This document shows positions 2,274 through 57,916 of a stretch of DNA of 64,000 bases, piece after piece. The position numbers were made by a program, and so were the translations under genes. Below the pieces are notes generated by a model. That model was not told the origin of the DNA. It saw nothing but the letters and a program-made list of their open reading frames with translations, and did not search any database. Every line of letters begins with the position of its first letter. The first letter of the stretch is position 1. Source of the DNA: Terriglobia bacterium (lineage in GTDB: Bacteria > Acidobacteriota > Terriglobia > UBA7540); NCBI GenBank assembly GCA_050013575.1, contig JBEKEZ010000002.1, forward strand, positions 192,736 to 256,735, given 5' to 3'.

Positions 2274-2858
2274 TCAGGGTGCGGCGGCGTGTGAACCACT
2301 GATACGAGCGCGCAGAATCTGGAAGACCACGTGGAGAAGGATGAGATGAGCGTCCTCGGCCTTTTGCATGTCGTCGACCGGCGCCACGACAGGAGTCCGC
2401 GCCAGGCGTGCCAGCTTGCCGCCATCGAAGCCGCTCAGGCCAACGGTGTGCGCTCCGTGGTTGTTGGCGTACTCGATGGCCTTCAGGACGTTGGGTGAAT
2501 TTCCGCTTCCGGAGAGGGCAACAACCAAGTCGCCGACCTTGAGAAAATTCTTGAGTGGTTCGATGAAAACGTCCTCGTAGGAAACGTCGTTGGCATAGGC
2601 CATTAGCAGCGGCAAGTTGTCGTTCAGACAAATCGCCCGAAAGCGTTTCTGCCGGCCGAACGAAAGGCTTTTGTTCAGGTCGCAAGTAATATGCGAAGCC
2701 GTGGAAGCGCTGCCGCCATTGCCCATCAGGAAGACCTGCCGTTCCTCTTCGTAAGCCGACTCCAAGAGGTGCACGAATTCCTCAAACCGGTCCTGGGAGA
2801 CACCGGCAAGGGCCTTCGACAACTCGGATTGATAGTCTGCGAAGAATTGACGGATCAT
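2274..2858 (-). CDS. SIS-domain sugar-phosphate isomerase (GmhA/phosphoheptose-isomerase-like)
   Basis: 194 aa. SIS motifs FLMGNGGSASTASH and ALSGSGNSPNVLKA. It is the last gene of the minus-strand polysaccharide locus. Confidence 0.75.
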   Translation of the reverse strand: MIRQFFADYQSELSKALAGVSQDRFEEFVHLLESAYEEERQVFLMGNGGSASTASHITCDLNKSLSFGRQKRFRAICLNDNLPLLMAYANDVSYEDVFIEPLKNFLKVGDLVVALSGSGNSPNVLKAIEYANNHGAHTVGLSGFDGGKLARLARTPVVAPVDDMQKAEDAHLILLHVVFQILRARISGSHAAAP

Positions 2859-2909: not shown

Positions 2910-4868
2910 CTACTCCGCTCCGGCCGTTCGAACAACCGAGGACTCAAAGCACCGGTTAAACTCCGGAAGAAGGCGCTGAACCTCTTGTGACGCATTGCGG
3001 GTTGCGGCGTGCTCCAAGGCGGCTAACTTCTCCTGAAACGCTGCAAAGTGCAAAGCCCTGGGGCGCACCACCCAAATCTTTTCGAATTGCGTGGGCGAGG
3101 CAGTCTCCGTATCCGGATCGAACAATTCCTCCGTCAGTTTTTCTCCGGGGCGCAATTGAGTGACCTCAATCTGAATATCCTTGCCGGGTCGAAGCCCCGA
3201 AAGCTCGATCAGATCGTTCGCCAAGTCGACGATGGGAACAGGGTCGCCCATATCGAGGACGAAGATTTCGCCGGACGACGCCAGCGCTCCCGCCTGAATC
3301 ACCAGGCGAACGGCTTCTGGAATCGTCATCATATACCGCTTCATGTCAGGATGGGTGAGGGTGAGCGGCCCGCCTCGCAGAATCTGTTTTTGGAATAACG
3401 GAATGACGCTTCCCCGGCTCCCCATGACGTTTCCAAAACGCACGCAGGCAAAGCTCGTGGCTTGGCCGTTCCGGCTGTGGGCCTGGACGATGAGTTCGCC
3501 GACGCGCTTCGTCGCACCCATGACGGACAAGGGCTTGACGGCCTTGTCGGTGGAAATGAAGATAAATCGAGAAACGCCGGCGGCCTGCGACTCCTCAACC
3601 AGATTGCGAGTCCCGATCACGTTGTTCAAGACCGCTTCACAGGGGTTGAGTTCCATCAAAGGGACGTGTTTGTGCGCAGCGGCGTGAAAAACGATGTCCG
3701 GCCGGAACTCCGAAAAGACCGCCCGGAGCCGCTCTCGGAATCGGATGTCAGCCACGACCGGATGAATCTCGGGCCCCGCCGCCCCGGCGCTGAGGTGGCC
3801 TGCAACGTCATGAAGACCATTCTCATCTTTGTCGAAAAGAATCAGTCTCTCAGCTTTCAGATTAAATAACTGGTGAGCCAGCTCGGAGCCAATGGAGCCA
3901 CCCGCGCCGGTAATAAGGATGCGGGTCCCTTGATAAGCGGCGTCCACCTGCGCGGCGCCCACCGATAGGTCGACCGTCTCGCGCCCGAGCAGGTCGTCCA
4001 TCTGCACTTCGCGAAAAGCGGCGATGTTGAGTTTGCCGTGCAAGATCTCCTCGAGCGTGGGAATGATCTTCATTTCGACAGAGAGATGCTCGGAGAGAGC
4101 CCACAATCGCTTCAGCGTGGAACGCGGGGGGCGGGTTATGGCGATGACGACCTGGTCCACGTTGTGTTCCTTGACGGCGGTCGCCATGAAGCTCGTAGGA
4201 CCCAACACACGAACACCATTGATGACCGCGCCGACCTTCCTGAAGTCATCATCTAGGAAACCGACGAGTTCAACCTGCGGGTTCGCCTCCATCTCTTTGG
4301 CGAGGCGAACGCCCGCCTGCCCCGCGCCCACCAGCAATATTCGGGTAGACTTCGCGGAGCTCCCATTTCCATTGCCTCCGCCCTGATATCGGAGGCGGCG
4401 GAGAGCCCGCACGCCCATACAGCCGCCCAGCGATAAGCAATATTCGAGAACAATCACGCTGAGCGGAACATGAAGCCAAAACGCGAATGGAACTGAGATA
4501 GGGTATAGAAAGCGGAGCACGAGGAGAAATGCGCTGACGATACTCATGGACCGAGCCATGCTGATGGCGTCAGGAAGGGACACATAGCGCCAAATCGACC
4601 GGTAAATCCCTAACTTCCAGTTGACATAGACTCTGGTGGCCACGAGGTACGGAAACCAGAGGAGAAATTGCTTCAGTGCCGCCCACGGCGGGAGACCTTC
4701 AAACCGAATAAGGTACGCAATGAAGAAGGAGATCGAAAAAATACAAGCGTCGATGATGACTTTGTTAGTTCGGGTGTAAATTCCGGGTTTCATGATTCGG
4801 ACTTGGCTCCTTGGCGGACGTGGAACATTGAAATCGAATAGGCCGCGGTTCACCTGACCGGGCCGCAA
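2910..4868 (-). CDS. membrane-bound nucleotide-sugar 4,6-dehydratase (CapD/PglF/WbpM family)
   Basis: N-terminal multi-TM region, then Rossmann segments LLVGAGQAG and ILITGAGGSIGSEL and a CapD-like C-terminal half. The real start is probably the ATG at 4793 (MKPGIYTRTNKV...). Confidence 0.85.
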   Translation of the reverse strand: MRPGQVNRGLFDFNVPRPPRSQVRIMKPGIYTRTNKVIIDACIFSISFFIAYLIRFEGLPPWAALKQFLLWFPYLVATRVYVNWKLGIYRSIWRYVSLPDAISMARSMSIVSAFLLVLRFLYPISVPFAFWLHVPLSVIVLEYCLSLGGCMGVRALRRLRYQGGGNGNGSSAKSTRILLVGAGQAGVRLAKEMEANPQVELVGFLDDDFRKVGAVINGVRVLGPTSFMATAVKEHNVDQVVIAITRPPRSTLKRLWALSEHLSVEMKIIPTLEEILHGKLNIAAFREVQMDDLLGRETVDLSVGAAQVDAAYQGTRILITGAGGSIGSELAHQLFNLKAERLILFDKDENGLHDVAGHLSAGAAGPEIHPVVADIRFRERLRAVFSEFRPDIVFHAAAHKHVPLMELNPCEAVLNNVIGTRNLVEESQAAGVSRFIFISTDKAVKPLSVMGATKRVGELIVQAHSRNGQATSFACVRFGNVMGSRGSVIPLFQKQILRGGPLTLTHPDMKRYMMTIPEAVRLVIQAGALASSGEIFVLDMGDPVPIVDLANDLIELSGLRPGKDIQIEVTQLRPGEKLTEELFDPDTETASPTQFEKIWVVRPRALHFAAFQEKLAALEHAATRNASQEVQRLLPEFNRCFESSVVRTAGAE

Positions 4869-4966: not shown

Positions 4967-5365
4967 TCACAGGCTCCTGTTCCACCCTGCGGAACGGGCG
5001 CATCGCAGGAACGTAATGTCGCTTCCCAGTAGGCCTTCACAGCTCGCAGGGTTGCTTGCAATGAATGTTGAGGCCTTCCACCCCACAGCCTGCTCTGCCT
5101 TGTGCGCCGCTCCCCAAAGCTCGACCGCTTCTGCGCGCCTGATGCGAGAGGGGTCGACCACGACCTGGATTGGTCGCGAGCTCAACCCTATCAGAATTTG
5201 CAGAACCTCCGCGATGGAAACGCTCCGCCCTGACCCAAGTTGATAGACCTCTCCCGGCTCGCCTTCCTCGAGCAACAAGTGGTAGCCGCGGACGATGTCG
5301 CGCCCATCGCTAAAGTCACGGCGCGCCTTGCTGAGCCGATCGGAAGACGGGCCAGCCTGGCATCA
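4967..5365 (-). pseudogene. 3' relic of an NAD-dependent sugar epimerase/reductase (GMD/Rmd-like SDR)
   Basis: The frame reads ...DRLSKARRDFSDGRDIVRGYHLLLEEGEPGEVYQLGSGRSVSIAEVLQIL...DPSRIRRAEAVELWGAAHKAEQAVGWK. This matches only the C-terminal third of extended SDRs. An in-frame TGA lies just upstream, there is no Rossmann N-domain, and the relic abuts the stop of the 5442-7085 gene. Confidence 0.55.
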
Positions 5366-5441
5366 CTTCGCGGCCACGGTCCAGTTGGTGCCGTCGCAGT
5401 ACGCCAGCACATGATTCGTACCGTCCCTTTATCCGCGATAC

Positions 5442-5735
5442 TCACATATTCGCCGCGCCAGTACTCAGCGCGTAGGCGTTGGTGCCGTTAAAGATGAAGC
5501 TCTGCGCACTGCATTTCGAGGCCGTCGAGCCGATAGTCATTCCCCCTAAAACGTTGGTGGGCCAGACGAAAGTATGACTGCCACCGCTGTCCTGGCAGAT
5601 GACGAAGTTGATCGTCTCGCCCGCTCTGGCGTTCGAGAGGGTCGAGCTGGTCACATTACCGGTGAGCGTGATCGTTTGCGTGTTGCCGAGCGAGGCATCG
5701 AAGGTTGGCGTGCTAGAAAAGCTGACGGTGTTGAG
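5442..5735. repeat. dispersed repeat copy 1 (encodes the shared C-terminal module)
   Basis: Nucleotide-level similarity to 54731-55024, for example aagctctgcgcRctgcatttcgaggcSgtcgagccRatMgtcatt. Both copies are 97 codons with no gaps. Confidence 0.8.
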
Positions 5736-7085
5736 CGTCCCGGCGTAGACCTTAAACACGTTTGGCAATTGCGATGTCCACGTCGCCCCTGCGGAATTAA
5801 TGAACTCTGTGGAGGAGCCGTCGATATGGCCGCGCAGGTAGTGAACGTTCGTGTTGGTGCTGTCGATGTAGAGGCCGGAACTATGTCCCCCGGACTGACC
5901 ATCCGAAAGGTGGGGATGTTCCAAGAACAGACCGTCGGTGTTAATGGCGTAAACTTCGGCGTAAGCTCCGGTTTCCCCCGCGTCGTTAAACTGCTCTCCG
6001 AGCATATGGATGCCAACGACCAGGCCATTGGTCCCATCGAGGTATACATCATACGATCCAGACCCCGCGAGGCCGTTCCCTTGATAACTGTTTCCAATAA
6101 ATGTAATGTCCGAAGTGGCGTATCCGGCGTTAGGTTTGAGATGAACGGCCCCTCCGGCAGTCACCTGGTTGCAGCCAATAAAGGTGTTTCGAGAAATCGT
6201 CATTTGGCCTATGCCGTATTCGCCGACAATGGCTCGACCCGCGATAGAAGCAAACTGCGATTGGTCAACTAGTGAGCCCGTGGTGTTTGCATTACCGTAG
6301 CGGATCCCTCCCGTCGTCCAACCAATCTGGACTTGACGAATTCGACTGAAATCAAGAGCGGCAGGACCTGGCGCGTTGAAATTTACTGCGTAACCAGATG
6401 TGTAGGCACCGCCGCCTGCCGGACCACTAAAAGTCATTTTGTCGATGTCAACAAACATCGCCTGAGTGCCGTTCAAGCGCACATGGTCGCGTGTATTAGT
6501 GTTGCCATTGATACGGAAGCCCGACAAGGTTAGCCGAGGTGATGAGTTGGCATCAGCACTAATTGCATCGGTGGCTGCACCTGTAGGATTAAACGTGAAC
6601 AACGTCGCCGCGCCGGTCAAACCGCCGTATCCAATACTGTATGGAGGTCCAGCACTGCCGCATCCGAAGACAGTCAACTGAGGTGAGCCGGTAATGAGAA
6701 AAAGGCTGCTGGCTCCGGTATACGTAAACGTCACGCCGCAACCGAGAAGAATCGTAACGTCCTTCGAGATGGTCACGGTACTCCAATTCTGTGCACCTAC
6801 AAGTCCCCGTGCATCACACGTCCCACCCGTCGCAGGCAAGCTCGCAATACAAGCGATAATCTTCGCTCCGCCGTCAGAGCCCGGCATGAGATCGGCGCGG
6901 ACAGTCGGGCCTTGAGTGTTCGGGTCAACAAACCAGCTACGGACATCGGGCATACGCAGGCTAGGGGTCTGGGGCTGTTGTGCACGCAAGCGCGCGCTGG
7001 AAATTAGAAAATGGAATACAGAAATTAGGAGGAGCACCACCAGTTGCCAATCTCCAGTTTCCAGTTTCTGACTTGGATTCTTCAT
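5442..7085 (-). CDS. secreted right-handed beta-helix (pectate-lyase/tailspike-like) protein with conserved 97-aa C-terminal module
   Basis: Leader is MKNPSQKLETGDWQLVVLLLISVFHFLISSARLRAQQPQ. The body is Gly/Thr/Asn-rich and repetitive (GAKIIACIASLPATGGTCDARG..., GNSYQGNG...). The C-terminal 97 aa are about 77% identical, ungapped, to the C-terminus of the 54731-57916 protein. The ORF track extends to 7139; ATG 7085 is preferred. Confidence 0.7.
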   Translation of the reverse strand: MKNPSQKLETGDWQLVVLLLISVFHFLISSARLRAQQPQTPSLRMPDVRSWFVDPNTQGPTVRADLMPGSDGGAKIIACIASLPATGGTCDARGLVGAQNWSTVTISKDVTILLGCGVTFTYTGASSLFLITGSPQLTVFGCGSAGPPYSIGYGGLTGAATLFTFNPTGAATDAISADANSSPRLTLSGFRINGNTNTRDHVRLNGTQAMFVDIDKMTFSGPAGGGAYTSGYAVNFNAPGPAALDFSRIRQVQIGWTTGGIRYGNANTTGSLVDQSQFASIAGRAIVGEYGIGQMTISRNTFIGCNQVTAGGAVHLKPNAGYATSDITFIGNSYQGNGLAGSGSYDVYLDGTNGLVVGIHMLGEQFNDAGETGAYAEVYAINTDGLFLEHPHLSDGQSGGHSSGLYIDSTNTNVHYLRGHIDGSSTEFINSAGATWTSQLPNVFKVYAGTLNTVSFSSTPTFDASLGNTQTITLTGNVTSSTLSNARAGETINFVICQDSGGSHTFVWPTNVLGGMTIGSTASKCSAQSFIFNGTNAYALSTGAANM

Positions 7086-7089
7086 TTTG
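6999..7089. repeat. heptad-phased inverted arms inside the leader coding region (H1)
   Basis: Arm A: ggaaatt agaaaat ggaatac agaaatt aggagga (6999-7033). Arm B: cagttgc caatctc cagtttc cagtttc tgacttg gattctt cattttg (7041-7089). The arms are imperfectly complementary, and the start codon lies in the last unit. Confidence 0.6.
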
Positions 7090-7200
7090 CACCACGCTCC
7101 AACACTGTCGGCTGGTCCGGGCGTGCGGCGAAGGAACAAGCGAAAAGGGTACCGTCAATTATTGGCTGATTCGTTTGGCTGTAAGGGTCAAACCTTCGCT

Positions 7201-7881
7201 TCACGCCTGAGTATGTCCTCTGTTCTCCCTGGTGGAATCAAAGAGTCGCAGGATGGTACGAAAGAGAAGCTTGAAGTCCCCGACAAGACTGGCCATCTGG
7301 CAGTAGGCCAGGTCAAGCTCCAACTTGCGTGCCAAGATTGTGCCGACATAAAAACTCTCGATGTCGGGATGGCGGGCAAGCAGCCGCTCTTCGTCAATGA
7401 ATGCCAAGGAAGCGGGCCCGGTCATTCCCGGCTTGAATTCCAGCAACTTTCGTTGCTGGCGCGAGTAAGTTACCACGTACTCCGGGAGTTCCGGGCGCGG
7501 GCCGACGAGGCTCATTTCCCCTCGCAGGACGTTGAGCAATTGCGGGATTTCGTCCAGTTTGGTCTTGCGAAGCCACTTCCCAACCCTGGTTATGCGTGCA
7601 TCACCCGAACCGGTAAGTTTAGGGCCCTGGCGGTCCGCGTGTTGGACCATCGTTCGGAGTTTGAGGATTTGGAAAGGGTCGCCCGCCTGCCCGACGCGCC
7701 ATTGGCGGAAGATGATAGGCCCGGGTGATTCAAGATGGATCGCTATTGCACATAATCCTAGAATCGGGCTGGTGATCATCAGGCCGGCTAGGGCGCCCAA
7801 CACGTCGAGGATTCTCTTCCCATACTCGAGGTAGAACGTACTTTGGCGGTCGATTGCTACCTCTTCTCTAGTTTCCATCAA
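7201..7881 (-). CDS. initiating phosphoglycosyl transferase (bacterial sugar transferase, PglC/WbaP C-domain type)
   Basis: 226 aa with one N-terminal TM segment. Motifs: SPGPIIFRQWRVG, FQILKLRTM, DARITRVGKWLRKTKLDEIPQLLNVLRGEMSLVGPRP. Confidence 0.9.
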   Translation of the reverse strand: MMETREEVAIDRQSTFYLEYGKRILDVLGALAGLMITSPILGLCAIAIHLESPGPIIFRQWRVGQAGDPFQILKLRTMVQHADRQGPKLTGSGDARITRVGKWLRKTKLDEIPQLLNVLRGEMSLVGPRPELPEYVVTYSRQQRKLLEFKPGMTGPASLAFIDEERLLARHPDIESFYVGTILARKLELDLAYCQMASLVGDFKLLFRTILRLFDSTRENRGHTQA

Positions 7882-8022: not shown

Positions 8023-9198
8023 TCATCGACGAAACTTCTGTGCAATATCAGTCAGACTCTCAATCACGCGGTCGACGTCATTATCTGTCATGCCGGGATA
8101 GATGGGCAACGAAATACACCGCTCAAAGTAATTCTCTGCCACCGGGAACTCACCCGGCCGATAGCCCCACTCCCTTTGGTAGTAAGGATGGAGGTGCAAG
8201 GGAATGAAGTGCACTGCCGTACCGATTCCGCGCTGATGCAACTCTTCGATAACTTGGTCACGATGCATGCGCACCACGGCTGGTTCCACCAGGATGACGT
8301 AAAGATGCCAAGCGTGTTGAACGTGGGGCGCGACCGGCGGCGTTCGATATGCATCCACCGGAGAGAGGCCCTGGCTGTATCTTTTGGCGATAGCCAGGCG
8401 CCGTCTCCACATGGCGTCACACTTGGCAAGCTGTACCAGCCCCAACGCCGCCTGAATATCCGTCAGGTTGTACTTGAATCCAGCTTCCAAAACCTCGTAA
8501 CGCCACGAACCTTGTGCACTGTATCGTTTCCAAGCATCCTGGCTCATCCCGTGGAGCCGCATGAGGCTGATCCGGGAAGCCAGTCGGTCATCGTCGGTGG
8601 TCACCATTCCACCTTCGCCAGTGGTAATCGTCTTTGTCGCATAGAAACTGAAAGCTGTAATGGGACTCACCGTCCCGATAGAACGCTCGTGGTACTTCGC
8701 GGGCAGCGCGTGCGCAGCGTCCTCAATGGGCAGCAATCCCTTCGCTTTAGCCAATTCAAGCAGCGCATTCATATCACAAGGATGGCCGGCAAAGTGAACG
8801 GGGATGATGGCGCGCGTCCTAGCCGTAATCTTCTTCTCGGCATCGGGCATGTCCAGATTGAAGTAGCAAGGTTCACAATCAACCAAGACCGGCTTGGCCT
8901 TGAAATAGGCAACCACCTCCGCCGTGGCCGTAAAGGTCAGGGTCGGCACCAGGACTTCTTCACCTTCTTTGAGTCCGATGGCATCCAAGGCGAGGTGAAG
9001 CGCGGCTGTGCAGGAGCTCACGGCCAGGGCATGTTTGCAGCCGATATAGCGCGCAAAAGCCTCTTCCAACTGCTGGGTCTTCGGGCCCGTCGTCAGCCAG
9101 CCGTTGCGGAGCACTTCCGAAACCGCCTCGATTTCTTCCTGCCCGATCGAGGGGCGATGAAAGGGGATAAAGGATTCCTTACTCACAGGTCGGATCAC
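8023..9198 (-). CDS. DegT/DnrJ/EryC1 family nucleotide-sugar aminotransferase (PglE-like)
   Basis: 391 aa. The PLP-lysine context SFYATKTITTGEGGMVTT and an N-terminal PFHRPSIGQEEIEAV are typical of the family. Confidence 0.9.
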   Translation of the reverse strand: MIRPVSKESFIPFHRPSIGQEEIEAVSEVLRNGWLTTGPKTQQLEEAFARYIGCKHALAVSSCTAALHLALDAIGLKEGEEVLVPTLTFTATAEVVAYFKAKPVLVDCEPCYFNLDMPDAEKKITARTRAIIPVHFAGHPCDMNALLELAKAKGLLPIEDAAHALPAKYHERSIGTVSPITAFSFYATKTITTGEGGMVTTDDDRLASRISLMRLHGMSQDAWKRYSAQGSWRYEVLEAGFKYNLTDIQAALGLVQLAKCDAMWRRRLAIAKRYSQGLSPVDAYRTPPVAPHVQHAWHLYVILVEPAVVRMHRDQVIEELHQRGIGTAVHFIPLHLHPYYQREWGYRPGEFPVAENYFERCISLPIYPGMTDNDVDRVIESLTDIAQKFRR

Positions 9199-9268: not shown

Positions 9269-10297
9269 CTACACCAGCTGGTCCCACTCGATCAGCCCCG
9301 CAGCCCACGAATAACCCACGCCAAATCCGATAAGCATCATTTTCGCCCCCGGCTTGAAGCGCCCCTGGTCGGCGTGCGCACGGAGGAGAATCGGAATGGT
9401 GGCCGAAACCGTGTTCCCGACCTCTTCCATGAAGAATGGCGCCTTTTCCGGCGGAAGACCCAGCTTCTTGAGGAGATGCTCGAGCATGAATCGACTGGCT
9501 TGGTGAAAGATAAAGAAGTCGATATCGCTTATGCTTAATCCGGTCTTATCGAGAAGTGCCTGGATGGACTTGGGAACCGTACTGACCGCAAAGGCAAAGA
9601 CCGCTGCTCCATCCATGAAAAGCTGGTGAGGTGCTCGAACGCAGCCGTTCTGTTCGACGTGTTGATTAAAGATGGACGGCGAGGCAGGAGTTCGCGCCGC
9701 ACCCGCCGGAACGATGAGATTACGCGCGCCACTCCCGTCGGTTCCGAAAACGAAATCTCCAATGCGGCCAGGACTAGAACCGGATTCTGAAATGAGCGTC
9801 GCGGCGGCTCCGTCGCCAAAAAGGGGACGGTTAAGACGGTCTCGGGGATTAATGTACTTGCTGTAAGTCTCGGCGGTAAGTAGTAGAATGTTTTTGCATG
9901 TACCCGATTCGACGAGGCACTTTGCGATGCTCAGCCCGTAGACATACCCGGAACAGCCCTGGTTGAAATCAATCGCGCCCGCGCTCTTGGGGATTCCCAA
10001 GCGATGCTGGATGCAGCACGCCGTGGCAGGAAGGAAGTAGTCCGGAGATTGAGTGCAGAACAGTACGAAATCGATCTGGGATGCTTGTGCCGTGTTCCGC
10101 TCGAACAGCTTGCCGGCGGCCTTGCACGCTAGATCCCCAGCGGTTTCGTCCGGCGCAGCGAGGTGTCGGGCTCGGATCCCCGTTTTCTGGTAGATATCGT
10201 CCATCCGCCAATCGGGATTCTCCCTGGCTAACTGTTCGTTGGTCTCGACCTTAGCCGGCAAGTAGTATTCAATTGCAGCGATTCTCGCGTGACCCAT
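9269..10297 (-). CDS. 3-oxoacyl-ACP synthase III (FabH-like KAS III)
   Basis: Motifs: FNQGCSGYVYGL (active-site Cys), FIFHQAS and GNTVSATIPI. The start is set at ATG 10297 (MGHARIAAIEYYLP), which has a GAGGTA SD 5 nt upstream. The ORF track extends to 10396. Confidence 0.85.
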   Translation of the reverse strand: MGHARIAAIEYYLPAKVETNEQLARENPDWRMDDIYQKTGIRARHLAAPDETAGDLACKAAGKLFERNTAQASQIDFVLFCTQSPDYFLPATACCIQHRLGIPKSAGAIDFNQGCSGYVYGLSIAKCLVESGTCKNILLLTAETYSKYINPRDRLNRPLFGDGAAATLISESGSSPGRIGDFVFGTDGSGARNLIVPAGAARTPASPSIFNQHVEQNGCVRAPHQLFMDGAAVFAFAVSTVPKSIQALLDKTGLSISDIDFFIFHQASRFMLEHLLKKLGLPPEKAPFFMEEVGNTVSATIPILLRAHADQGRFKPGAKMMLIGFGVGYSWAAGLIEWDQLV

Positions 10298-10496: not shown

Positions 10497-10736
10497 CTAA
10501 TCTTGAAGCAAGCCTTGCGATTTGAGCACCTCGATTATCTGTCCCACTGTTGTCAGCTTCGAAACCAGGTCGTCGGACAGCTCGACGTGCAACTCCTGGT
10601 CGATGGTGGCAAGAATAGTGACCTGGGCCATCGAGTCCCATGTTTTCACAGTCTTCGGGCCATCCTCCATTTTGAGCGACCCCCTCGGAGCTTCGACAAT
10701 ATCTTCTAGTATTGCGACGAATGCTTCTGTCTTCAT
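10497..10736 (-). CDS. acyl carrier protein
   Basis: 79 aa, acidic. It has a WDSMAQV phosphopantetheine-Ser motif and a 4-nt ATGA overlap with the upstream GNAT gene. Confidence 0.8.
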   Translation of the reverse strand: MKTEAFVAILEDIVEAPRGSLKMEDGPKTVKTWDSMAQVTILATIDQELHVELSDDLVSKLTTVGQIIEVLKSQGLLQD

Positions 10737-11401
10737 CCCTGACCCCCCTGATTACGAATGCGATAACAGAGTTCCACGAGCGCCGGCGCCGGCGGCACAT
10801 GTGTCTCGCGCAGCACTTCGAAGCCCATCTTCTGATATGCCCGGATGAGATTCTGGTTTTCTTTTCGGACCTCCAAATAAACGTGCTTGCCACCAAGTTT
10901 CTTGATGTGGTCGACGCAGGCAGATACAATCGCCAGTCCATAGCCTCGCGCTTCTTCCTCAGGCAGGACGGCGGCCGAAGCCAGGGCCGCGATGTCCTTC
11001 TCACTGGGCGTCGCGAGCCGCTGAAATACCGAACGGACGATTCTCACGAGGATCAAAGGTCGCTTGGCCACCGCCCTCAAGGAGTAAACCGCGAAGAGGA
11101 ACCATCGCCTGATGAAGAGCCCCCGGTAAAACTTCCCCGGACTGAACGTGCCAGCACAAAACCCGAGTACCCGCCCGTCCCGCTCGAAGACGTAACTGAT
11201 GCCCCAGCTGGAACGCTGGACCTCCGCGTAGTAAAGGGCCATAAACTTCCGTCCCAGCGAGGTCAGGAAATAGCCAGGAAAAGCAGCCATGTGTATGCCA
11301 ACAACCACAGGGACATCCTCCGGCCTCATCGGCCGAACATGTTGTCGTCCCATCTTTCTCAAATACAGCAGAGCAAGTTCACTGCTCGGAATTCCCGACA
11401 T
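10733..11401 (-). CDS. GNAT family N-acyltransferase
   Basis: 222 aa. Acyl-CoA/ACP pocket-like region AAVLPEEEARGYGLAIVSACVDHIKKLG. It is translationally coupled to the ACP gene. Confidence 0.75.
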   Translation of the reverse strand: MSGIPSSELALLYLRKMGRQHVRPMRPEDVPVVVGIHMAAFPGYFLTSLGRKFMALYYAEVQRSSWGISYVFERDGRVLGFCAGTFSPGKFYRGLFIRRWFLFAVYSLRAVAKRPLILVRIVRSVFQRLATPSEKDIAALASAAVLPEEEARGYGLAIVSACVDHIKKLGGKHVYLEVRKENQNLIRAYQKMGFEVLRETHVPPAPALVELCYRIRNQGGQG

Positions 11402-11706: not shown

Positions 11707-12957
11707 TTAAGAGGGCTTGGTCGTCTCTTCCTGGCCCATTCCGGCCGTTTCGGAAAGAATTCGGGCAATTTCTCCTGTGCAGATTCTCCGGCTGAAGTGT
11801 TCCTCCAGATACTTTCGTCCGCGCATCCCCATCTGCTCGATCTCCTCGCGATGGACGTAGGCGTAGTGAAGAGCCTCGGCCAGATCTTTCGGATCGCCGG
11901 ACTCGACACAGATGCCACAATCGGCGGTCTTCACCAGACGAGCAATCTCACTCTCAGGAGGGGCAGTGGCAAGCACCGGGCGGCCGCTGGCCATCATCTT
12001 GAAAATCTTCGAGGGGACGGAGGCGTTCGCAGCGGACGAGTCCAAGGTGACCAAGTTCATGTCGGCGGAGCGAAGAACCGTGGGATAGCGCTCCAGTGGC
12101 TCAAAGGGCCTGAACAAGACGTTGTCGAGCCCTCTGACCTGCACGTCCTCCAGGAGTCGTTGCTTCTTCACGCCTTCGCCGATGATCACCAGCCTGAAGG
12201 GCTCGCTCCGGAGCAAACCCAGCGCCTGAATGACACATTCGAGGTTGGAGTTATGTGTCAAACCACCGGAATATACCACAACGAACTTATCTTTCCCCCA
12301 CGACTCGCGCAAAGCCGGATCGGGCGGACCGGGGCGAACGAAATGAGGGTCAGCCCAATTTGCGACCACGCGAATCTTCGAATCTGGTACGCCTTTGCCC
12401 AAGAGGTTTTGTCGAAACCCCTCGGATATGACCACGATGGCATGGGCATGCCGATAGATCCATTTCTCCATCCACTTGAAGAAACGAATGGCGGTGCGGT
12501 TCCTCAGGACACCGACTGCGACCGCAACATCGGGATGGATGTCCTGGATGTTGACGACGACTTTCGCGGACTTCAGCCAGCCCAACACGGAGGCCGTCAG
12601 GCCGAGCGGCAGAGGCGGAAGGGCCGCGTAAATGACATCTACCCGGGGACTCGCCAGAACGCCGCCGAGGAACGAGGAGACGATGAAGCTCCCGAAATTT
12701 GCGACCCGTTGCCAGAAAGCCTTGCTCGGAGTGGCATAGATGTAAGTGCGGAAAACGTGCGCACCACCCAGCTCCTCACGCTGATACAACTTGTGACGGT
12801 ATGGCGGAGGAATGACTCCGTCGGGGTAGTTTGGGAAAGCCGTAAGGACAGTGACGCGATGTCCTCCGGCCAGCAAATCCTCCGTCAACTCCCAAAGCGA
12901 GACGGCGAAACCAACCTCTTCAGGTCTATAGTACTCGGTCAGCAACAAGATATTCAT
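11707..12957 (-). CDS. glycosyltransferase family 4 (WcaI-like)
   Basis: 416 aa with an MNILLLTEYYRPEEVG start typical of WcaI-type GT4 and a C-terminal GT-B half (VPSKIFKMMASGRPVLA). Confidence 0.85.
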   Translation of the reverse strand: MNILLLTEYYRPEEVGFAVSLWELTEDLLAGGHRVTVLTAFPNYPDGVIPPPYRHKLYQREELGGAHVFRTYIYATPSKAFWQRVANFGSFIVSSFLGGVLASPRVDVIYAALPPLPLGLTASVLGWLKSAKVVVNIQDIHPDVAVAVGVLRNRTAIRFFKWMEKWIYRHAHAIVVISEGFRQNLLGKGVPDSKIRVVANWADPHFVRPGPPDPALRESWGKDKFVVVYSGGLTHNSNLECVIQALGLLRSEPFRLVIIGEGVKKQRLLEDVQVRGLDNVLFRPFEPLERYPTVLRSADMNLVTLDSSAANASVPSKIFKMMASGRPVLATAPPESEIARLVKTADCGICVESGDPKDLAEALHYAYVHREEIEQMGMRGRKYLEEHFSRRICTGEIARILSETAGMGQEETTKPS

Positions 12958-13616
12958 TGGCGCGTCTCGGCCAGGACTGTAATTTCATGTCCAGGCTTGC
13001 CGAAAGCCACGCTCAACCCAGAGATGAGCGCCGCGGGCGCCTTCTCGCGCCCGCCATCCCAAGTCCCGAGTGGGCCGAAAATGTTATGGAACCGGACAAT
13101 ACGAGTCTCAATGGCATAATCCTGCCGATAATGTATACATAATCTCTCAATAACGAGCTTCTCCCAGCCGTAAGCATCTTGGGGCAGAGCAGGATAGGCA
13201 TCTTCTTCCTTGAGGGGAATGACGTTGGTCTCCATTTGCTTGTATTCAGGATAGACGCAGGCTGAAGACGTGAACAGGTACCGCTTCACATCGTGGACGC
13301 GCGCTGCCTCCAACGTGTGGAAGTTGATGAGCGCGTTGTTGTGAAGGATTTGGGCATGGTGGCAGGAGATAAATCCCATTCCTCCCATGTCAGCCGCCAG
13401 CGCATAGACCTCCTGGATACCACGGGTCGCCTCGAGGCAGTTGTCCCAGCGGCGCAGGTCGAGCAATTCAAATTCGTTCGCATCCGTAGGAGCGTACTCC
13501 GGAGGTTTCAGATCCACCCCGCGCACCCAATAGCCCTGTTTCTTGAGGTAGCTCACCAAGTGGTGTCCGATAAACCCGCCGGCGCCCGTCACAAGAACCT
13601 TCACTTGTTGTTCCAT
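12954..13616 (-). CDS. GDP-mannose-3,5-epimerase-like extended SDR, apparently 3'-truncated (220 aa)
   Basis: Motifs: VLVTGAGGFIGHHL, SSACVYP, YGWEK, GGREKAPAA. The ORF then ends after about 25 unrelated residues, with its TGA overlapping the GT4 ATG (caATGA). Family members are normally more than 300 aa. Confidence 0.6.
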   Translation of the reverse strand: MEQQVKVLVTGAGGFIGHHLVSYLKKQGYWVRGVDLKPPEYAPTDANEFELLDLRRWDNCLEATRGIQEVYALAADMGGMGFISCHHAQILHNNALINFHTLEAARVHDVKRYLFTSSACVYPEYKQMETNVIPLKEEDAYPALPQDAYGWEKLVIERLCIHYRQDYAIETRIVRFHNIFGPLGTWDGGREKAPAALISGLSVAFGKPGHEITVLAETRQ

Positions 13617-13770: not shown

Positions 13771-15114
13771 TCAAAACGACCGAGAGCGTCCCGCCAGTGG
13801 TGCCAGGATCCTTCGCCTTCGAATCCTGGCGTTTCGCACACTGCCTTGCGATAAATACAGCAGGCTGTAACGCCACAACGCCAAGGCTACAAGGATCGCC
13901 AATGCGCTGACATACGTCGTCTCGAACCAACCGACGAGATCAACAATGTAAAGCCATTCGTAGTGAAACCGAAGGTCCCCAACAGAGGCGGGGTTGGAAA
14001 AGAACCAGTCGAGCGCTCCGAGCAAGACAGCTATCGGAGTGAGCACAACCCAGTAGGCCCAGCCTGGAGCCACAATCAATAGGGATCCAAAAAATGATGC
14101 TGAAGCTGCGCTTACAGGTCCCCCACTTCCGACATACATCTGATTTATGTAATACCCAGGATTAATAGGTTTGTCTGGGAACAAAAAGCCCGGAAGAAAA
14201 CTCCGTATATTATCCCTGATGTATTCTGACCTGAAGCTGTTCCTCCAATCAGAAGCTGTCCACAGGACGCTTGCAACATCTTGCTGCGTAAACCTCCCTA
14301 AAGAACCCGCGAACGCGTCTGCGATCGTGACGTTGGGATCGTGAAACCTGTGCTGAACCCCCACAAGAAGCGCAGGAACAATCGCCAAACCCAAGGCGAT
14401 TGCCAGCAGAGTGGCCCTCCCACGCAATTGCGGCAACCGCCTGAACCTCCAAAAGTAGGCGGCCAAGTATCCCACGAAGACAGCAGCCATGCCCTTGGAA
14501 CCGCTAATGGCGAATTGCCATCCAGCGATTGCTAAGCAGGGGATTGCCCAGAATAGCGCGCCTCTCGTGAGTGCTATCGCAAGGCCCGAAAAGATAGCAA
14601 ACAAGACTCCTTCTATCAGGAGTCCACCTACTTCTAGTTCGCCTAGGCTGCGAGGCTCGAAGATCCCGTATTGCCGACCGCTGAAGGGGTTAAAGTAAAT
14701 CGTGACCAAAATCAAGACAAGAGCGCCACCGTAATACTTATACGCTGACAACGGCACGTTCTCTTTGCTTGACGCGGGGCCGCTTTGCTCCGTACCTCTT
14801 TGCTTTGTTCGCCATCTGCAAAGCCTCCTTGCTGTGGCAAGGTATACAGCCCAGGTGAGGACTACACTAAGGCACCACCAAAGGGTTGCCGCAAAGTAGC
14901 TGCCATCGGAAATCGTGTCTACGGCAACGTAGACACCAGCCTCGTACCTGAAGAGGTTCGATAGAGCGCAGACAAAAAAGTACCCTATTAGAACTATAAG
15001 AACAGGAGCTTCGCTGAAGGAGATTCGTGAGCGACGAAGATAGCGGCGAGCAGAGAAGAAAAGGATTCCGCACAAGATCAGCTGAAAGACTTGTAAAGTC
15101 GGGTAATCCATCAT
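13771..15114 (-). CDS. polytopic membrane protein, Wzy-type repeat-unit polymerase candidate
   Basis: 447 aa with 10 or more hydrophobic segments and no recognisable enzymatic motif. Its position between glycosyltransferase genes in a Wzx/Wzy locus supports the call. Confidence 0.5.
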   Translation of the reverse strand: MMDYPTLQVFQLILCGILFFSARRYLRRSRISFSEAPVLIVLIGYFFVCALSNLFRYEAGVYVAVDTISDGSYFAATLWWCLSVVLTWAVYLATARRLCRWRTKQRGTEQSGPASSKENVPLSAYKYYGGALVLILVTIYFNPFSGRQYGIFEPRSLGELEVGGLLIEGVLFAIFSGLAIALTRGALFWAIPCLAIAGWQFAISGSKGMAAVFVGYLAAYFWRFRRLPQLRGRATLLAIALGLAIVPALLVGVQHRFHDPNVTIADAFAGSLGRFTQQDVASVLWTASDWRNSFRSEYIRDNIRSFLPGFLFPDKPINPGYYINQMYVGSGGPVSAASASFFGSLLIVAPGWAYWVVLTPIAVLLGALDWFFSNPASVGDLRFHYEWLYIVDLVGWFETTYVSALAILVALALWRYSLLYLSQGSVRNARIRRRRILAPLAGRSRSF

Positions 15115-54730: not shown

Positions 54731-55024
54731 TCACATGTTAGTGACGCCTGGAGAGGTTGCTTCCGCGTTGCTGCCGTCGAACACAAAGCTCTGCGCGCTG
54801 CATTTCGAGGCGGTCGAGCCAATCGTCATTGCGCCCTTCACGTTTGAGGGCCAGACGAAGGTCCTGCTGCCGGTCGAGTCCTGGCAGATGATGAAGTTCA
54901 ATTGCTCGCCCGCAGAAGCGTTGGCGAGCGTCGAACTGGTGACGTTGCCGGTGAGCGTAATCTTTTGGGTGTTGCCGAGGGACGCGTCGAAGGTAGGCGT
55001 CCCTGAGAACGTCACGACGTTCAG
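54731..55024. repeat. dispersed repeat copy 2 (encodes the shared C-terminal module)
   Basis: See 5442-5735. My hand count is 75 of 97 identical residues, with no gaps. Confidence 0.8.
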
Positions 55025-57916
55025 TGATGTGGCAAAGTTTCGCGCCGTAACCGCGCCCGTGCCGCTAGGCGTGAGTGTGACGTTCTGGTTCGTTCCGCCC
55101 GCGGTGAGCGAGATGGCGCCGGTCGACGTCACGCCCCCATTGATCACGGGCGAGGTCAGCGTCTTGTTAGTCAACGTGTCGACAGAAGCCCTGTAGACGA
55201 AGGTGTCGGTCACGTCTTGCAGGGTCTGGGTGCGCGCGCCTGTTGCCGTGCCGGTGACTTTGATGTTGTTGGTAGCCGCACTGCCCAGCCACAGGTTGCC
55301 GAACGGGAGCGAGGCCGACCCAAGGTCCCCGACGCCGGCGGAGGAGGGTGTGATCGTCTGCGGTACGCTGAGCGCGCTCGCTCCGAAGATATAAGATTTG
55401 GTGCCGTTCGAGGCTGTCAAGACAAACTGTGAAGACGAAGGATTGAGGTAGAGAGAGTCCGACCCCGCAGCGTCAGAGTTTATCATGTCGTAGACGGGCT
55501 GATTGGCGGAACAGTTCGTGCCCGTGTTGACGGGGGTCCCGTTATTCACTTGCGCAGCCGGGCAGCCAATCCGGATGGCTGCGCCACCGTAAACGCTGGG
55601 GGCAGTCGGGAGCCACATTCCGTAGAAGAATAGCCCTTGAGCAGTGATCACGGCAGGCGGCGAGAAGGGAGCCCCATTGACATAGTCCGCATACTCTGAC
55701 GGGTCGTTCAAATTTTGGACGCCAATCGCATTTTCGCTCCTCTGCCATCCGTGCCCGGACAGTTGAATCAGCATCGTGCTGCTCGGCGCGTTCCCCACGT
55801 AGGGCAATAATTTGTGCACGCCGGAGAACACGTTCGCGCTGGAATCGAATTGCCAGTAGTGTTGATTTTCGACCATCTCGCCGCTTGCCCAGTTGACGTT
55901 GTTCGGGGCCAGCGTTGCCGTGTCCGAAAGCTTCCCGTTTTGCTGCCACGAAAGAACCTCGGCCCCCGGAAAAACGTAGTACTGGTTGGACTGCTGCCAG
56001 CCCGTGCAGGTGGGTGGCGAGCAGCTTCCGCTGATCCCATGGCCGGAGTAACCGATTCCGTTGTTGCCAACCGCCCATGGAATCAGGTGGGAGCTGTCAG
56101 TGACGGCAAGTATCGGGAACGCCTGACGAACACAGTTCACCGCGGGCGAGACTCCGCACGTCGAACTATATCCAGCCTCGCCGTAACGGTCCGAGACCAA
56201 CTCGACATAGTAACCCGCGCAGGCTCCAGCGTTGCCCGATGCGCACGCGCCACCGTTGGCAATGCTCACTACCGCTCCCGGAGGGTGCGGCTTATTGAAA
56301 GTCGCAGTGAAGGCGGTTTGAGGGTTTCCGGAGAAGGCAGTGGCTTTCACAATTTCGTAACTTCCGTCATCGCCGATGACGATGGGCGTGTTAGTGGTGA
56401 CACCGCTCAAGTTCGTCCCCATGGTGTAACTGGCCGGCGTCACTGTGCAGGTGGCAGGCAGGGTGGTAGTAGGGTTGCAGTTCGGACCCGGGATCGCAGC
56501 GTCGGTCAGGGCCAGCACGGTGTTCGCAGTCCACGACGTGCCGTTGCCAACATACTGCGGCCAGGTCCATGCGCCGAGGTTATACGTCCCAAGGGAAGAG
56601 AGCGTGCCATTGCTGCCTTTGGAAATATCGAGCAACGGGCGCCCGGCGCCCTGCTCGGTCTCGGACTGGAGATTGCTCACGGTGATCTGCGTGGCCCCTT
56701 GAGATAATGCAGGGCAGGAGGGCGGACCACAGATCGTGCCGGAGTATACGTCACTCACCTGATAAGCGGTGAAGCCGGCCGACTCCAACCCCTCGTCACC
56801 CATCGTGCTCGCGCCTCCGTAGTTCATGCTCAACACTTCGAGGCCGATGGTGTCGCCCGTCGCCCCGCTGAGCGTCTGGATGCTCAGAGGAATGTGTTCA
56901 GCAGGCGTGTAGTACTGTCCGGCGATGTTAACGGCCTTGAAGACGCTTTTGTCGGCGTAATAGGGCCAGTTGTAGAGATTCCTTCCGCCATCAAAGACCT
57001 TCTGGGAAAACTCGTTTTCCACTACATTCATGAACTGAGTATAGCCGCTGCTTCGGTAGCGATTCCCCACCCACTGATTGCCGACGATGAGATTCGGAAG
57101 GCCGCCGCTGTCAGTCGCGTTGCCCGGCGAATCGTAGTTGGTGACGTGAAGCCCGTCGCGGAAGTCCCAAACCTGGAGATTGGGACTATTCGAGCACCCA
57201 TTGGAGTTACCTGTCATCGAGGTGATGCCGCTGTAGATACTGCCCGCGCCGCAGATTGCCTCCGTGGAGCTGGACTTGCTCGCGGGATTCACGATGAGCG
57301 CGCCGTTCGTTCCGGCATTTGAGATGGCGCTGGCACAAGGCGTGGAACCGGAAAATTGGTCGCAGAATCGCGTGGCCTCGACGTGACCCGTGGAGTCGGT
57401 GCCCAGCGGCTGCGGCACAGACCAAGTTCGCACGTCGGTGATCGAGTTGATGGACGAGCTCCCCGTGCTGACTTCCGCCAGAGGGACTTGACCGGCGACG
57501 AAGCCGCTGGTGTTAGAGGCCGGCACACAGTTATTGGCTGGGTCCAGATACACGTAATTCGTCGCGCTCGCGGTCATGGGCAGGGTGCCGCCGGGATAGC
57601 TGACTGGGGCCTGCGGATTGCCGCAAAAAGCCGTTCCCGCGGCAATGTTCACGTTGGGCCAAGTCCCCGCCGTCACCCAATAGCCAGGACCCACGCCCTG
57701 GACGTACTTCGCATTGACGGCGTAAACGGGCTGGCCGCCTTCCGCCTGCGGCTGCTGCCCCAAAACTAGTGACGAGTGACGAGTGAAGAGTGACGAGCAA
57801 GTTAGAACGACCACGATCAGAGCAACTCGCAGCGCATCGTGCCCGTTCCGACCCCTGACTCCTGACTCCTGACTCCTAACTTCTAGCTTTTGACTTTTAG
57901 ATGCTGCTTTCAACAT
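54731..57916 (-). CDS. large tail-fibre-like secreted protein (1061 aa) with conserved leader and C-terminal module
   Basis: GAGGTG SD 5 nt before the ATG. Leader: MLKAASKSQKLEVRSQESGVRGRNGHDALRVALIVVVLTCSSLFTRHSSLVLGQQPQ. Fibre-type motifs: DLGSASLPFGNLWLG and DTLTNKTLTSPVING. The Gly/Thr/Ser/Asn/Cys-rich body and the C-terminal 97 aa are shared with the 5442-7085 protein. Confidence 0.75.
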   Translation of the reverse strand: MLKAASKSQKLEVRSQESGVRGRNGHDALRVALIVVVLTCSSLFTRHSSLVLGQQPQAEGGQPVYAVNAKYVQGVGPGYWVTAGTWPNVNIAAGTAFCGNPQAPVSYPGGTLPMTASATNYVYLDPANNCVPASNTSGFVAGQVPLAEVSTGSSSINSITDVRTWSVPQPLGTDSTGHVEATRFCDQFSGSTPCASAISNAGTNGALIVNPASKSSSTEAICGAGSIYSGITSMTGNSNGCSNSPNLQVWDFRDGLHVTNYDSPGNATDSGGLPNLIVGNQWVGNRYRSSGYTQFMNVVENEFSQKVFDGGRNLYNWPYYADKSVFKAVNIAGQYYTPAEHIPLSIQTLSGATGDTIGLEVLSMNYGGASTMGDEGLESAGFTAYQVSDVYSGTICGPPSCPALSQGATQITVSNLQSETEQGAGRPLLDISKGSNGTLSSLGTYNLGAWTWPQYVGNGTSWTANTVLALTDAAIPGPNCNPTTTLPATCTVTPASYTMGTNLSGVTTNTPIVIGDDGSYEIVKATAFSGNPQTAFTATFNKPHPPGAVVSIANGGACASGNAGACAGYYVELVSDRYGEAGYSSTCGVSPAVNCVRQAFPILAVTDSSHLIPWAVGNNGIGYSGHGISGSCSPPTCTGWQQSNQYYVFPGAEVLSWQQNGKLSDTATLAPNNVNWASGEMVENQHYWQFDSSANVFSGVHKLLPYVGNAPSSTMLIQLSGHGWQRSENAIGVQNLNDPSEYADYVNGAPFSPPAVITAQGLFFYGMWLPTAPSVYGGAAIRIGCPAAQVNNGTPVNTGTNCSANQPVYDMINSDAAGSDSLYLNPSSSQFVLTASNGTKSYIFGASALSVPQTITPSSAGVGDLGSASLPFGNLWLGSAATNNIKVTGTATGARTQTLQDVTDTFVYRASVDTLTNKTLTSPVINGGVTSTGAISLTAGGTNQNVTLTPSGTGAVTARNFATSLNVVTFSGTPTFDASLGNTQKITLTGNVTSSTLANASAGEQLNFIICQDSTGSRTFVWPSNVKGAMTIGSTASKCSAQSFVFDGSNAEATSPGVTNM
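57778..57902. repeat. two heptad-phased arrays inside the leader coding region (H8)
   Basis: agtgacg agtgacg agtgaag agtgacg agcaagt (57778-57812) and cctgact cctgact cctgact cctaact tctagct tttgact tttagat (57854-57902). About 5 of 7 positions per unit are complementary between the arrays. Confidence 0.6.

Follow-up and report, generated by a model that had tools for sequence, protein, structure and literature searches.

A putative domesticated phage tailspike-like gene beside a truncated reductase gene in a surface-polysaccharide locus of a Terriglobia bacterium

Organization of the locus

In this study, a stretch of 64,000 nucleotides from a soil-dwelling Terriglobia bacterium of the phylum Acidobacteriota (contig JBEKEZ010000002.1 of assembly GCA_050013575.1), referred to as the window, was analysed with respect to one gene of a surface-polysaccharide locus, named here the spike gene ('bh') after its tailspike-like product. 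The encoded protein joins a predicted export leader, a right-handed beta-helix and a C-terminal knob of the phage tail-fibre type, and directly downstream of the gene lies only the last third of a broken short-chain dehydrogenase/reductase (SDR) gene. We propose that the spike gene is of phage origin, that it broke the SDR gene on arrival and that its product may now act on the polysaccharide of its own locus. The coordinates of all the features are collected in Table 1.

The Pfam and NCBIfam scans confirmed the position that a preliminary description of this DNA had given to the spike gene, between a PglC-like and a PglF-like gene and on the same strand as both, and they placed all the genes discussed in the locus on the minus strand. 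The gap between the PglC-like and spike genes holds no more promoter-like sites than expected from shuffled sequence, and no terminator-like hairpin was found between these two genes; the spike gene may be co-transcribed with the pathway genes. On its other side, a gap of 650 nucleotides (nt) containing the SDR relic separates it from the PglF-like gene, whose open reading frame (ORF) extends over 2910-4868 and whose call of 627 amino acids (aa), starting at 4793, is the same on contigs of identical sequence. These contigs also reveal that the locus is closed by an opposite-strand aminoacyl-tRNA synthetase gene. A second GmhA-like SIS gene and a GT9 heptosyltransferase gene were observed upstream of position 15114, as seen on the identical contig L038 (198-1940). 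Since the two SIS genes and the heptosyltransferase bracket the cluster, this arrangement suggests that its product may be a glycan of the lipopolysaccharide (LPS) or O-antigen type rather than a free exopolysaccharide (EPS).

Table 1. Features of the surface-polysaccharide locus and the related gene of the tail-like cluster (positions in the window)
Feature	Positions	Strand	Basis or remarks
GNAT gene	10733-11401	-	Pfam/NCBIfam
Small ORF without Pfam match, between the GNAT and KAS-III genes		-	Gene call on identical contigs
KAS-III gene	9269-10297	-	Pfam/NCBIfam
PglE/PseC-like aminotransferase	8023-9198	-	Pfam/NCBIfam
PglC-like monotopic phosphoglycosyl transferase, upstream neighbour of the spike gene	7201-7881	-	Pfam Bac_transf 1.8e-58; NCBIfam EPS_sugtrans 1.7e-67
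Gap between PglC-like and spike genes, 115 nt	7086-7200	-	GGAG ~12 nt ahead of the start codon; a single weak promoter-like site, 7185-7158
Spike gene ('bh'), 547 aa	5442-7085	-	ORF; stop codon at 5442-5444
Predicted Sec-type leader, residues 1-35	6981-7085	-	Hydrophobic core LVVLLLISVFHFLISS, then ARLRA/QQPQ (slash, predicted cut); read by eye from the sequence
Right-handed beta-helix region, residues ~46-446	5748-6950	-	AF2 model, Foldseek; begins with the cap DVRSWFVDPN...LPATGGTCDARG
C-terminal knob, residues 447-547 (phage tail-fibre C-terminal domain)	5445-5747	-	Precomputed Pfam PF26209 (Phage_phiTE_241_C), matches marked weak
Possible relic of an older knob C-terminus, directly after the spike stop	5363-5428	-	RDGTNHVLAYCDGTNWTVAAK followed by a stop; weak evidence
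Pseudogene stump, last third (residues ~213-323) of a Gmd/Rmd-type extended SDR	4996-5329	-	Alignment to intact 331-aa SDRs
PglF-like membrane-anchored UDP-HexNAc (N-acetylhexosamine) 4,6-dehydratase, downstream neighbour	2910-4793	-	Pfam Polysacc_synt_2 1.9e-110
SIS (GmhA-like) gene	2274-2858	-	Pfam/NCBIfam
Secreted fibre-like protein with the same knob, 1061 aa, last gene of the tail-like cluster	54731-57916	-	Sequence comparison

Modular make-up and predicted fold of the spike protein

The spike ORF spans 5442-7139, and database proteins identical to its product start at the ATG at 7085, which gives the 547 residues adopted here. The AlphaFold2 (AF2) model displays a helix at residues 12-33, the AxA/QQ pattern that follows the hydrophobic core recurs in most members of the spike family, and the protein is predicted to be exported through the Sec pathway. 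It can be observed that the leader runs directly into the DVRSW motif that opens the family-conserved helix start (residues ~46-150, 50-63% identity to many relatives), whereas the relatives carry about 100 aa between their leader and the corresponding DVRTW ('PIYAVNAKYVQGVGPGYW...ITDVRTW'); this N-terminal module, presumed to be the attachment part, is missing from the spike protein of the window.

The AF2 model was built from an alignment of 46 sequences and reached a mean pLDDT (predicted local distance difference test) of 68.6, a model from the single spike sequence (pLDDT 39.6) not being usable. A region search and a profile search in a set of 5.8 billion proteins added few sequences to the alignment, and the protein P0121 and the other matches from a search of cluster representatives, given below, are not part of it. 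The model is all-beta with short regular strands, with pLDDT values of 80-92 at the helix start, 90-97 in the knob and 45-75 in the helix body. Of the 50 Foldseek matches listed from the PDB, 48 are right-handed beta-helix proteins, and the alignments of the other two are limited to about 100 residues within tailspike chains. Represented among the matches are GH28 polygalacturonases, rhamnogalacturonase A and the tailspikes of CBA120 (TSP2/3), HK620, P22 and Sf6, as well as AlgE4, NosD and PfbA. Against BFVD, a set of predicted viral structures, 87 phage matches at E<=1e-3 were obtained, comprising tail fibres, 'pectate lyase superfamily' proteins and tail-fibre C-terminal domains. The preliminary description of a modular, tailspike-like protein with a leader, a beta-helix and a shared fibre tip is borne out; these comparisons support the fold class and the phage-fibre character of the protein, not its catalysis.

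The helix body is rare: a search of 1.84 billion cluster representatives yielded no more than two proteins that align along it, P0121 (49% identity) and P0122 (37%). P0121 is a metagenome protein of 617 aa with a C-terminal domain of the K1-capsule-lyase type and a different N-terminus, a domain make-up that is a further sign of module shuffling among depolymerase-like proteins. When 27 homologues were scanned with Pfam, three matched Beta_helix, and single ones matched the Gp49 pectin-lyase-like or RHGA models.

Two alternative functions have to be weighed against this structural evidence. The A-module of AlgE4 and NosD are among the fold matches and three of the 27 homologues match Beta_helix or NosD models, so that the protein could be a polymer-level modifying enzyme, such as a C5-epimerase of the AlgG/AlgE type, and not a glycanase. 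We consider this highly improbable: glycanases and tailspikes match better than AlgE4 and NosD do, a protein of the depolymerase type is indicated both by the phage-fibre knob and by the context of the family, and no uronic-acid pathway genes were seen beside the spike gene in the Pfam and NCBIfam scans. The protein could also be an exported, non-catalytic component of the surface or matrix, in which the beta-helix and knob would act in the manner of a lectin or adhesin, anchoring or cross-linking the polysaccharide but leaving its chains uncut. The beta-helix adhesin PfbA is among the Foldseek matches, and no catalytic motif was identified in the spike protein. WceF of Pantoea stewartii, a tailspike-fold glycosidase that is encoded in an EPS cluster, bears an export signal and hydrolyses stewartan, and whose knockouts lengthen the chains, agglutinates with its substrate and cleaves it slowly (PMC7949094). 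Most of the structural neighbours are nevertheless glycanases or depolymerising tailspikes, and the closest helix homologue, P0121, has the capsule-lyase domain, which leaves a lectin or adhesin as an unlikely explanation, though one with some substance.

Related lineages and selection

Spike proteins that are 90-100% identical were detected in three lineages, namely the population of the window (L038-L041, with identical DNA), the JGI contig L002 and the Logan contig L001. The identical protein occurs on more than 20 metagenome contigs and in 76 index blocks, and the gene order is the same on the displayed contigs, which are four places standing for 22 that were read in JGI and ENA samples. 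In all three lineages the shared sequence continues from the spike stop into the spacer, and L002 covers the relic through to the PglF-like gene. No full-length spike orthologue was found in four genomes of the same genus, where the knob sits on other, longer proteins; these genomes harbor intact SDR homologues (52-67% identity) near their PglC and PglF genes, in varying order.

The ratio of non-synonymous to synonymous substitution rates (dN/dS) of the spike gene, compared with L001 and L002 at 90-91% identity, is 0.16 overall and 0.05 for residues 1-290, with a range of 0.05-0.17. As judged from these ratios, the spike gene is under purifying selection and in use. This bears on the notion that it is a passenger without functional connection, left behind neutrally by a recombination or prophage event and of no use to the cell. 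The gene does lie at a junction with a pseudogene scar, and polysaccharide loci are known mosaics with gene remnants; still, the low dN/dS, the identity of the protein across many samples and the spike frame that stayed intact in three lineages while the adjacent relic gained lesions have already put this explanation in disfavour, and we give it hardly any credence.

Against a background of 96-99% identity, the window and L002 diverge in a patch at 5710-6210 (63-89%), and the helix end of the L002 orthologue is recombined (63-70% DNA identity). L002 (JGI Ga0187771_10056690, 1200-2135) also carries an insert of 261 nt, encoding a fibre-like segment of 87 aa before the knob. Module exchange is therefore still under way.

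The knob and the protein of the tail-like cluster

The knob of the spike protein, its last 101 aa, is 75% identical in protein to the product of 54734-55036, the end of the ORF encoding the 1061-aa protein of the tail-like cluster. A local hmmscan gave no PF26209 match for the knob at E<=10, and tail-fibre C-terminal domains from BFVD superpose on it with a root-mean-square deviation of 1.6-2.5 Å and 26-34% identity. The knob is widespread, being 60-85% identical in more than 100 different proteins. A recent exchange between the two knobs of the window was considered and rejected, since their DNA identity is about 78% and stops at the stop codon. Directly after the spike stop, the stretch 5363-5428 resembles the ends of variant knobs ('NVQLFSCDGTNAWAVS', '...YCDGTNW...') with an E-value of 0.002 in the 160-nt spacer, which is not significant window-wide; it is kept in L001 and L002 and may be the trace of an earlier knob replacement.

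Upstream of the 1061-aa gene, a protein of 1502 aa matches tail-fibre PHROGs. As a separate observation, the Terriglobia fibre-like proteins that end tail modules (54731-57916 and those of L042-L044) nearly all begin with a Sec-type leader, AxA/QQPQ, and such a leader would not be expected on proteins that are built into virions inside the cytoplasm.

The preliminary description had claimed paralogous ends for the two window proteins and, through them, a functional link between the polysaccharide locus and the tail-like cluster. The paralogy stands for the C-terminal end but not for the leaders, whose protein alignment has an E-value of 0.25 and which display no DNA similarity. The functional link is weakened, as only the widespread knob is common to the two proteins and their central parts are unrelated.

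One form of such a link would make the spike protein a trans-acting accessory of a domesticated tail-like particle cluster 48 kb away: an unattached, exported spike would open the species' own polysaccharide for the particles, with the shared knob as a common docking target, and the whole family of fibre-like proteins at tail-module ends would be Sec-exported and not assembled on virions in the cytoplasm. The known parallel is TspA of the gene transfer agent RcGTA, a detachable tailspike that is co-regulated with the agent and binds its particles via an N-terminal beta-sandwich (bioRxiv 10.64898/2026.07.19.739414). In both cases the tailspike gene lies outside the gene cluster for the particles of a domesticated element of phage descent, and TspA degrades the biofilm polysaccharide of its producer; the spike protein differs in lacking the N-terminal module, in its predicted Sec leader and in having no known regulatory link. 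We regard this accessory role as very unlikely.

The truncated SDR gene

The stump is 67% identical to an intact SDR of the same genus (G003) and 73% to one on the metagenome contig L031, and Pfam GDP_Man_Dehyd matches it with 3.3e-8 at profile positions 218-323 of 332, the C-terminal substrate-binding region. Homology begins at residue 213 of 331, and nothing upstream of the stump matches the Rossmann part (GxxGxxG) or the YxxxK motif of an SDR. In the relatives, this SDR often lies directly after a true gmd gene, which would fit an Rmd-type reductase; no NCBIfam model reaches its cut-off. The relic is therefore the C-terminal third without a Rossmann domain, as preliminarily described, but its internal lesion is not the in-frame stop that had been proposed: an extra A near 5077 shifts the frame by +1, and the sole in-frame stop (5363-5365) sits at the 5' edge of the relic.

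The relic of L002 does not have this frameshift and displays a TGG-to-TGA change five codons further on instead, so that the two lineages carry independent lesions that post-date their shared truncation. Neither an intact SDR frame nor a functional short SDR was found in relatives with the same junction. Over the 252 comparable bases of the stump (5078-5329), the window and L002 differ by five non-synonymous and seven synonymous changes (omega 0.22, binomial P 0.014). These counts are small, the stump is without a conserved start codon or ribosome-binding site, and there are clear signs of recombination in its vicinity; it is therefore still read as a pseudogene despite the low omega. The best scenario is that an insertion cut off the 5' two-thirds of the SDR gene.

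A second extended SDR gene of the window (12885-13616, minus strand) is cut to 220 aa, compared with 333 aa for its L001 orthologue, about 500 nt covering the C-terminal third of the SDR and the start of a GT4 gene having been swapped for 141 unrelated bases. Its break, at residue ~197, nearly complements the start of the stump at residue ~213. The idea that the stump at 4996-5329 is the missing C-terminal third of this truncated SDR (12954-13616) was rejected; with no more than 28% identity between the stump and that part of the intact orthologue, the near-complementary breaks are probably a coincidence.

Phage ancestry of the spike gene

The phage context was checked for three members of the spike family on long contigs (P0013, P0015 and P0062) and for the 1061-aa paralogue of the window. 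P0013, P0015 and the paralogue are each the last gene of a same-strand tail module with tape-measure, tail-assembly, J-like or tail-fibre PHROG genes. P0062 stands last in a comparable row of genes without names, among them one with a spanin-like match. These modules are siphophage-like, and the spike copy of the window, lying among sugar-pathway genes, is the exception. The GC content at third codon positions is 0.57 in the helix, 0.78 in the knob (like the tail cluster) and 0.65-0.71 in the neighbouring genes, a contrast that indicates a mosaic history of the spike gene.

No match to the spike protein was found among viral contigs, nor to the helix alignment among genome contigs, and of 50,697 isolated phages only Arthrobacter phage Jinkies matched, with 32% identity over residues 356-536. 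Since the relatives end siphophage-like tail modules and the window copy is without the ~100-aa N-terminal module, a phage origin of the spike gene together with an insertion scar is well supported. The capture from a phage that had been raised preliminarily is consistent with this and with the knob held in common with the tail-cluster protein.

The same evidence could be read as the last gene of a decayed prophage that was kept for phage defence, removing or masking a glycan receptor or binding incoming phage, and standing outside the pathway proper. Family members occupy the final position of tail modules, the usual place of lysogenic-conversion genes, export leaders occur across the family, and the broken SDR begins within tens of bases of the knob stop (or of the possible older-knob relic), which fits a prophage edge inside the SDR gene. 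Nevertheless, no integrase, att repeats or other phage genes were found near the spike gene, which has the strand and spacing of the pathway genes and is stably fixed in at least three lineages; we therefore hold a defence role to be doubtful, and quite unlikely on balance.

Proposed role and comparison with known systems

The reading that we prefer, with a probability of roughly 55%, is that of a domesticated spike acting on the polysaccharide of its own locus, with the SDR gene broken on its arrival. The spike gene would be a domesticated member of a Terriglobia family of exported tailspike- or tail-fibre-like proteins whose genes as a rule close tail modules of the siphophage type. At the 3' end of the cluster for surface polysaccharide (O-antigen or EPS), one copy would have become fixed, keeping its leader, beta-helix and knob, and would have come either as part of a prophage that later decayed or as a recombined segment. 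On arrival it would have severed the ancestral SDR gene (Gmd/Rmd type) near codon 213, and the last third of that gene would be left as a decaying scar. The Sec-exported protein would then bind the locus's own polysaccharide along the groove of the beta-helix and probably cleave it, and such cleavage would trim the chain length or release the polymer, as for Pantoea WceF.

A number of observations weigh against this reading. The spike protein had no direct match in the Pfam, PHROG or NCBIfam scans, and the profile of the 27 homologues retrieved no chain at E<=1 from the PDB sequence set, WceF included. In the helix body the confidence of the model is no better than moderate (pLDDT 45-75), and the matches to the PDB obtained with Foldseek score weakly (best E 1.7e-3, template modelling scores of 0.2-0.33), with probabilities up to 0.99-1.0. 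Beta-helix proteins also serve as lectins, adhesins or polymer-level epimerases, and no catalytic residues could be assigned in the spike protein. Export is read from the sequence only, and the n-region of the leader is without net positive charge. As regards the scar, the preliminary claim that the beta-helix gene replaced the 5' two-thirds of the SDR gene finds support in the decaying relic common to related lineages, but neither a search of 40 related genomes nor the metagenome scan yielded a pre-insertion allele, with an intact SDR and no spike gene, and the inserted block could have been larger than the spike gene alone.

Among the known systems, WceF and its homologues AmsF and WcaM resemble the spike protein in several respects: a tailspike-fold beta-helix protein encoded by a same-strand gene inside a Wzx/Wzy-type polysaccharide cluster, an N-terminal export signal (here predicted), a suspected phage origin and a proposed trimming of the cell's own polymer, which for the spike protein would hold by analogy. 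The two differ in that no sequence relation is detectable with the homologue profile against PDB sequences, the leader of WceF is of the Tat type and that of the spike protein is predicted to be of the Sec type, and WceF retains a tailspike-like N-terminal domain whereas the spike protein is without the N-terminal module of its family. Furthermore, the spike protein ends in a phage-fibre knob with a 75% identical copy on a tail-cluster gene of the same genome, and the insertion scar is still visible at its gene.

With phage tailspikes and depolymerases (P22, HK620, CBA120 TSP2/3 and the 'pectate lyase superfamily' tail proteins), the spike protein has in common the modular combination of a beta-helix and a C-terminal domain, the fold matches, relatives at the ends of tail modules and helix segments swapped between lineages. 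Unlike them, it carries a predicted export leader and no particle-binding N-terminal domain, and its gene has become fixed in a biosynthetic locus, outside a phage or tail module. Gene remnants mark recombination junctions of O-antigen and capsule loci. Here, too, the limit of an acquired segment can be recognized by a sugar-pathway gene that has been cut short, the difference being that this segment is a phage-type spike gene and not a sugar-pathway block.

The principle of a phage-type spike within a polysaccharide pathway is already established by WceF, and the spike gene is a new, clear example rather than a new principle. It provides, from the Acidobacteriota, a dominant soil phylum that has received little study, a further well-documented case of a phage-type spike retained in a bacterium's own polysaccharide locus, of which few are known. 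The phage ancestry of the gene is unusually legible, with a paralogous knob in the same genome, relatives in tail modules, a lost N-terminal module and a visible insertion scar. The spike protein is also a tractable candidate enzyme for acidobacterial EPS or O-antigen, polymers that are relevant to soil aggregation and peat carbon.

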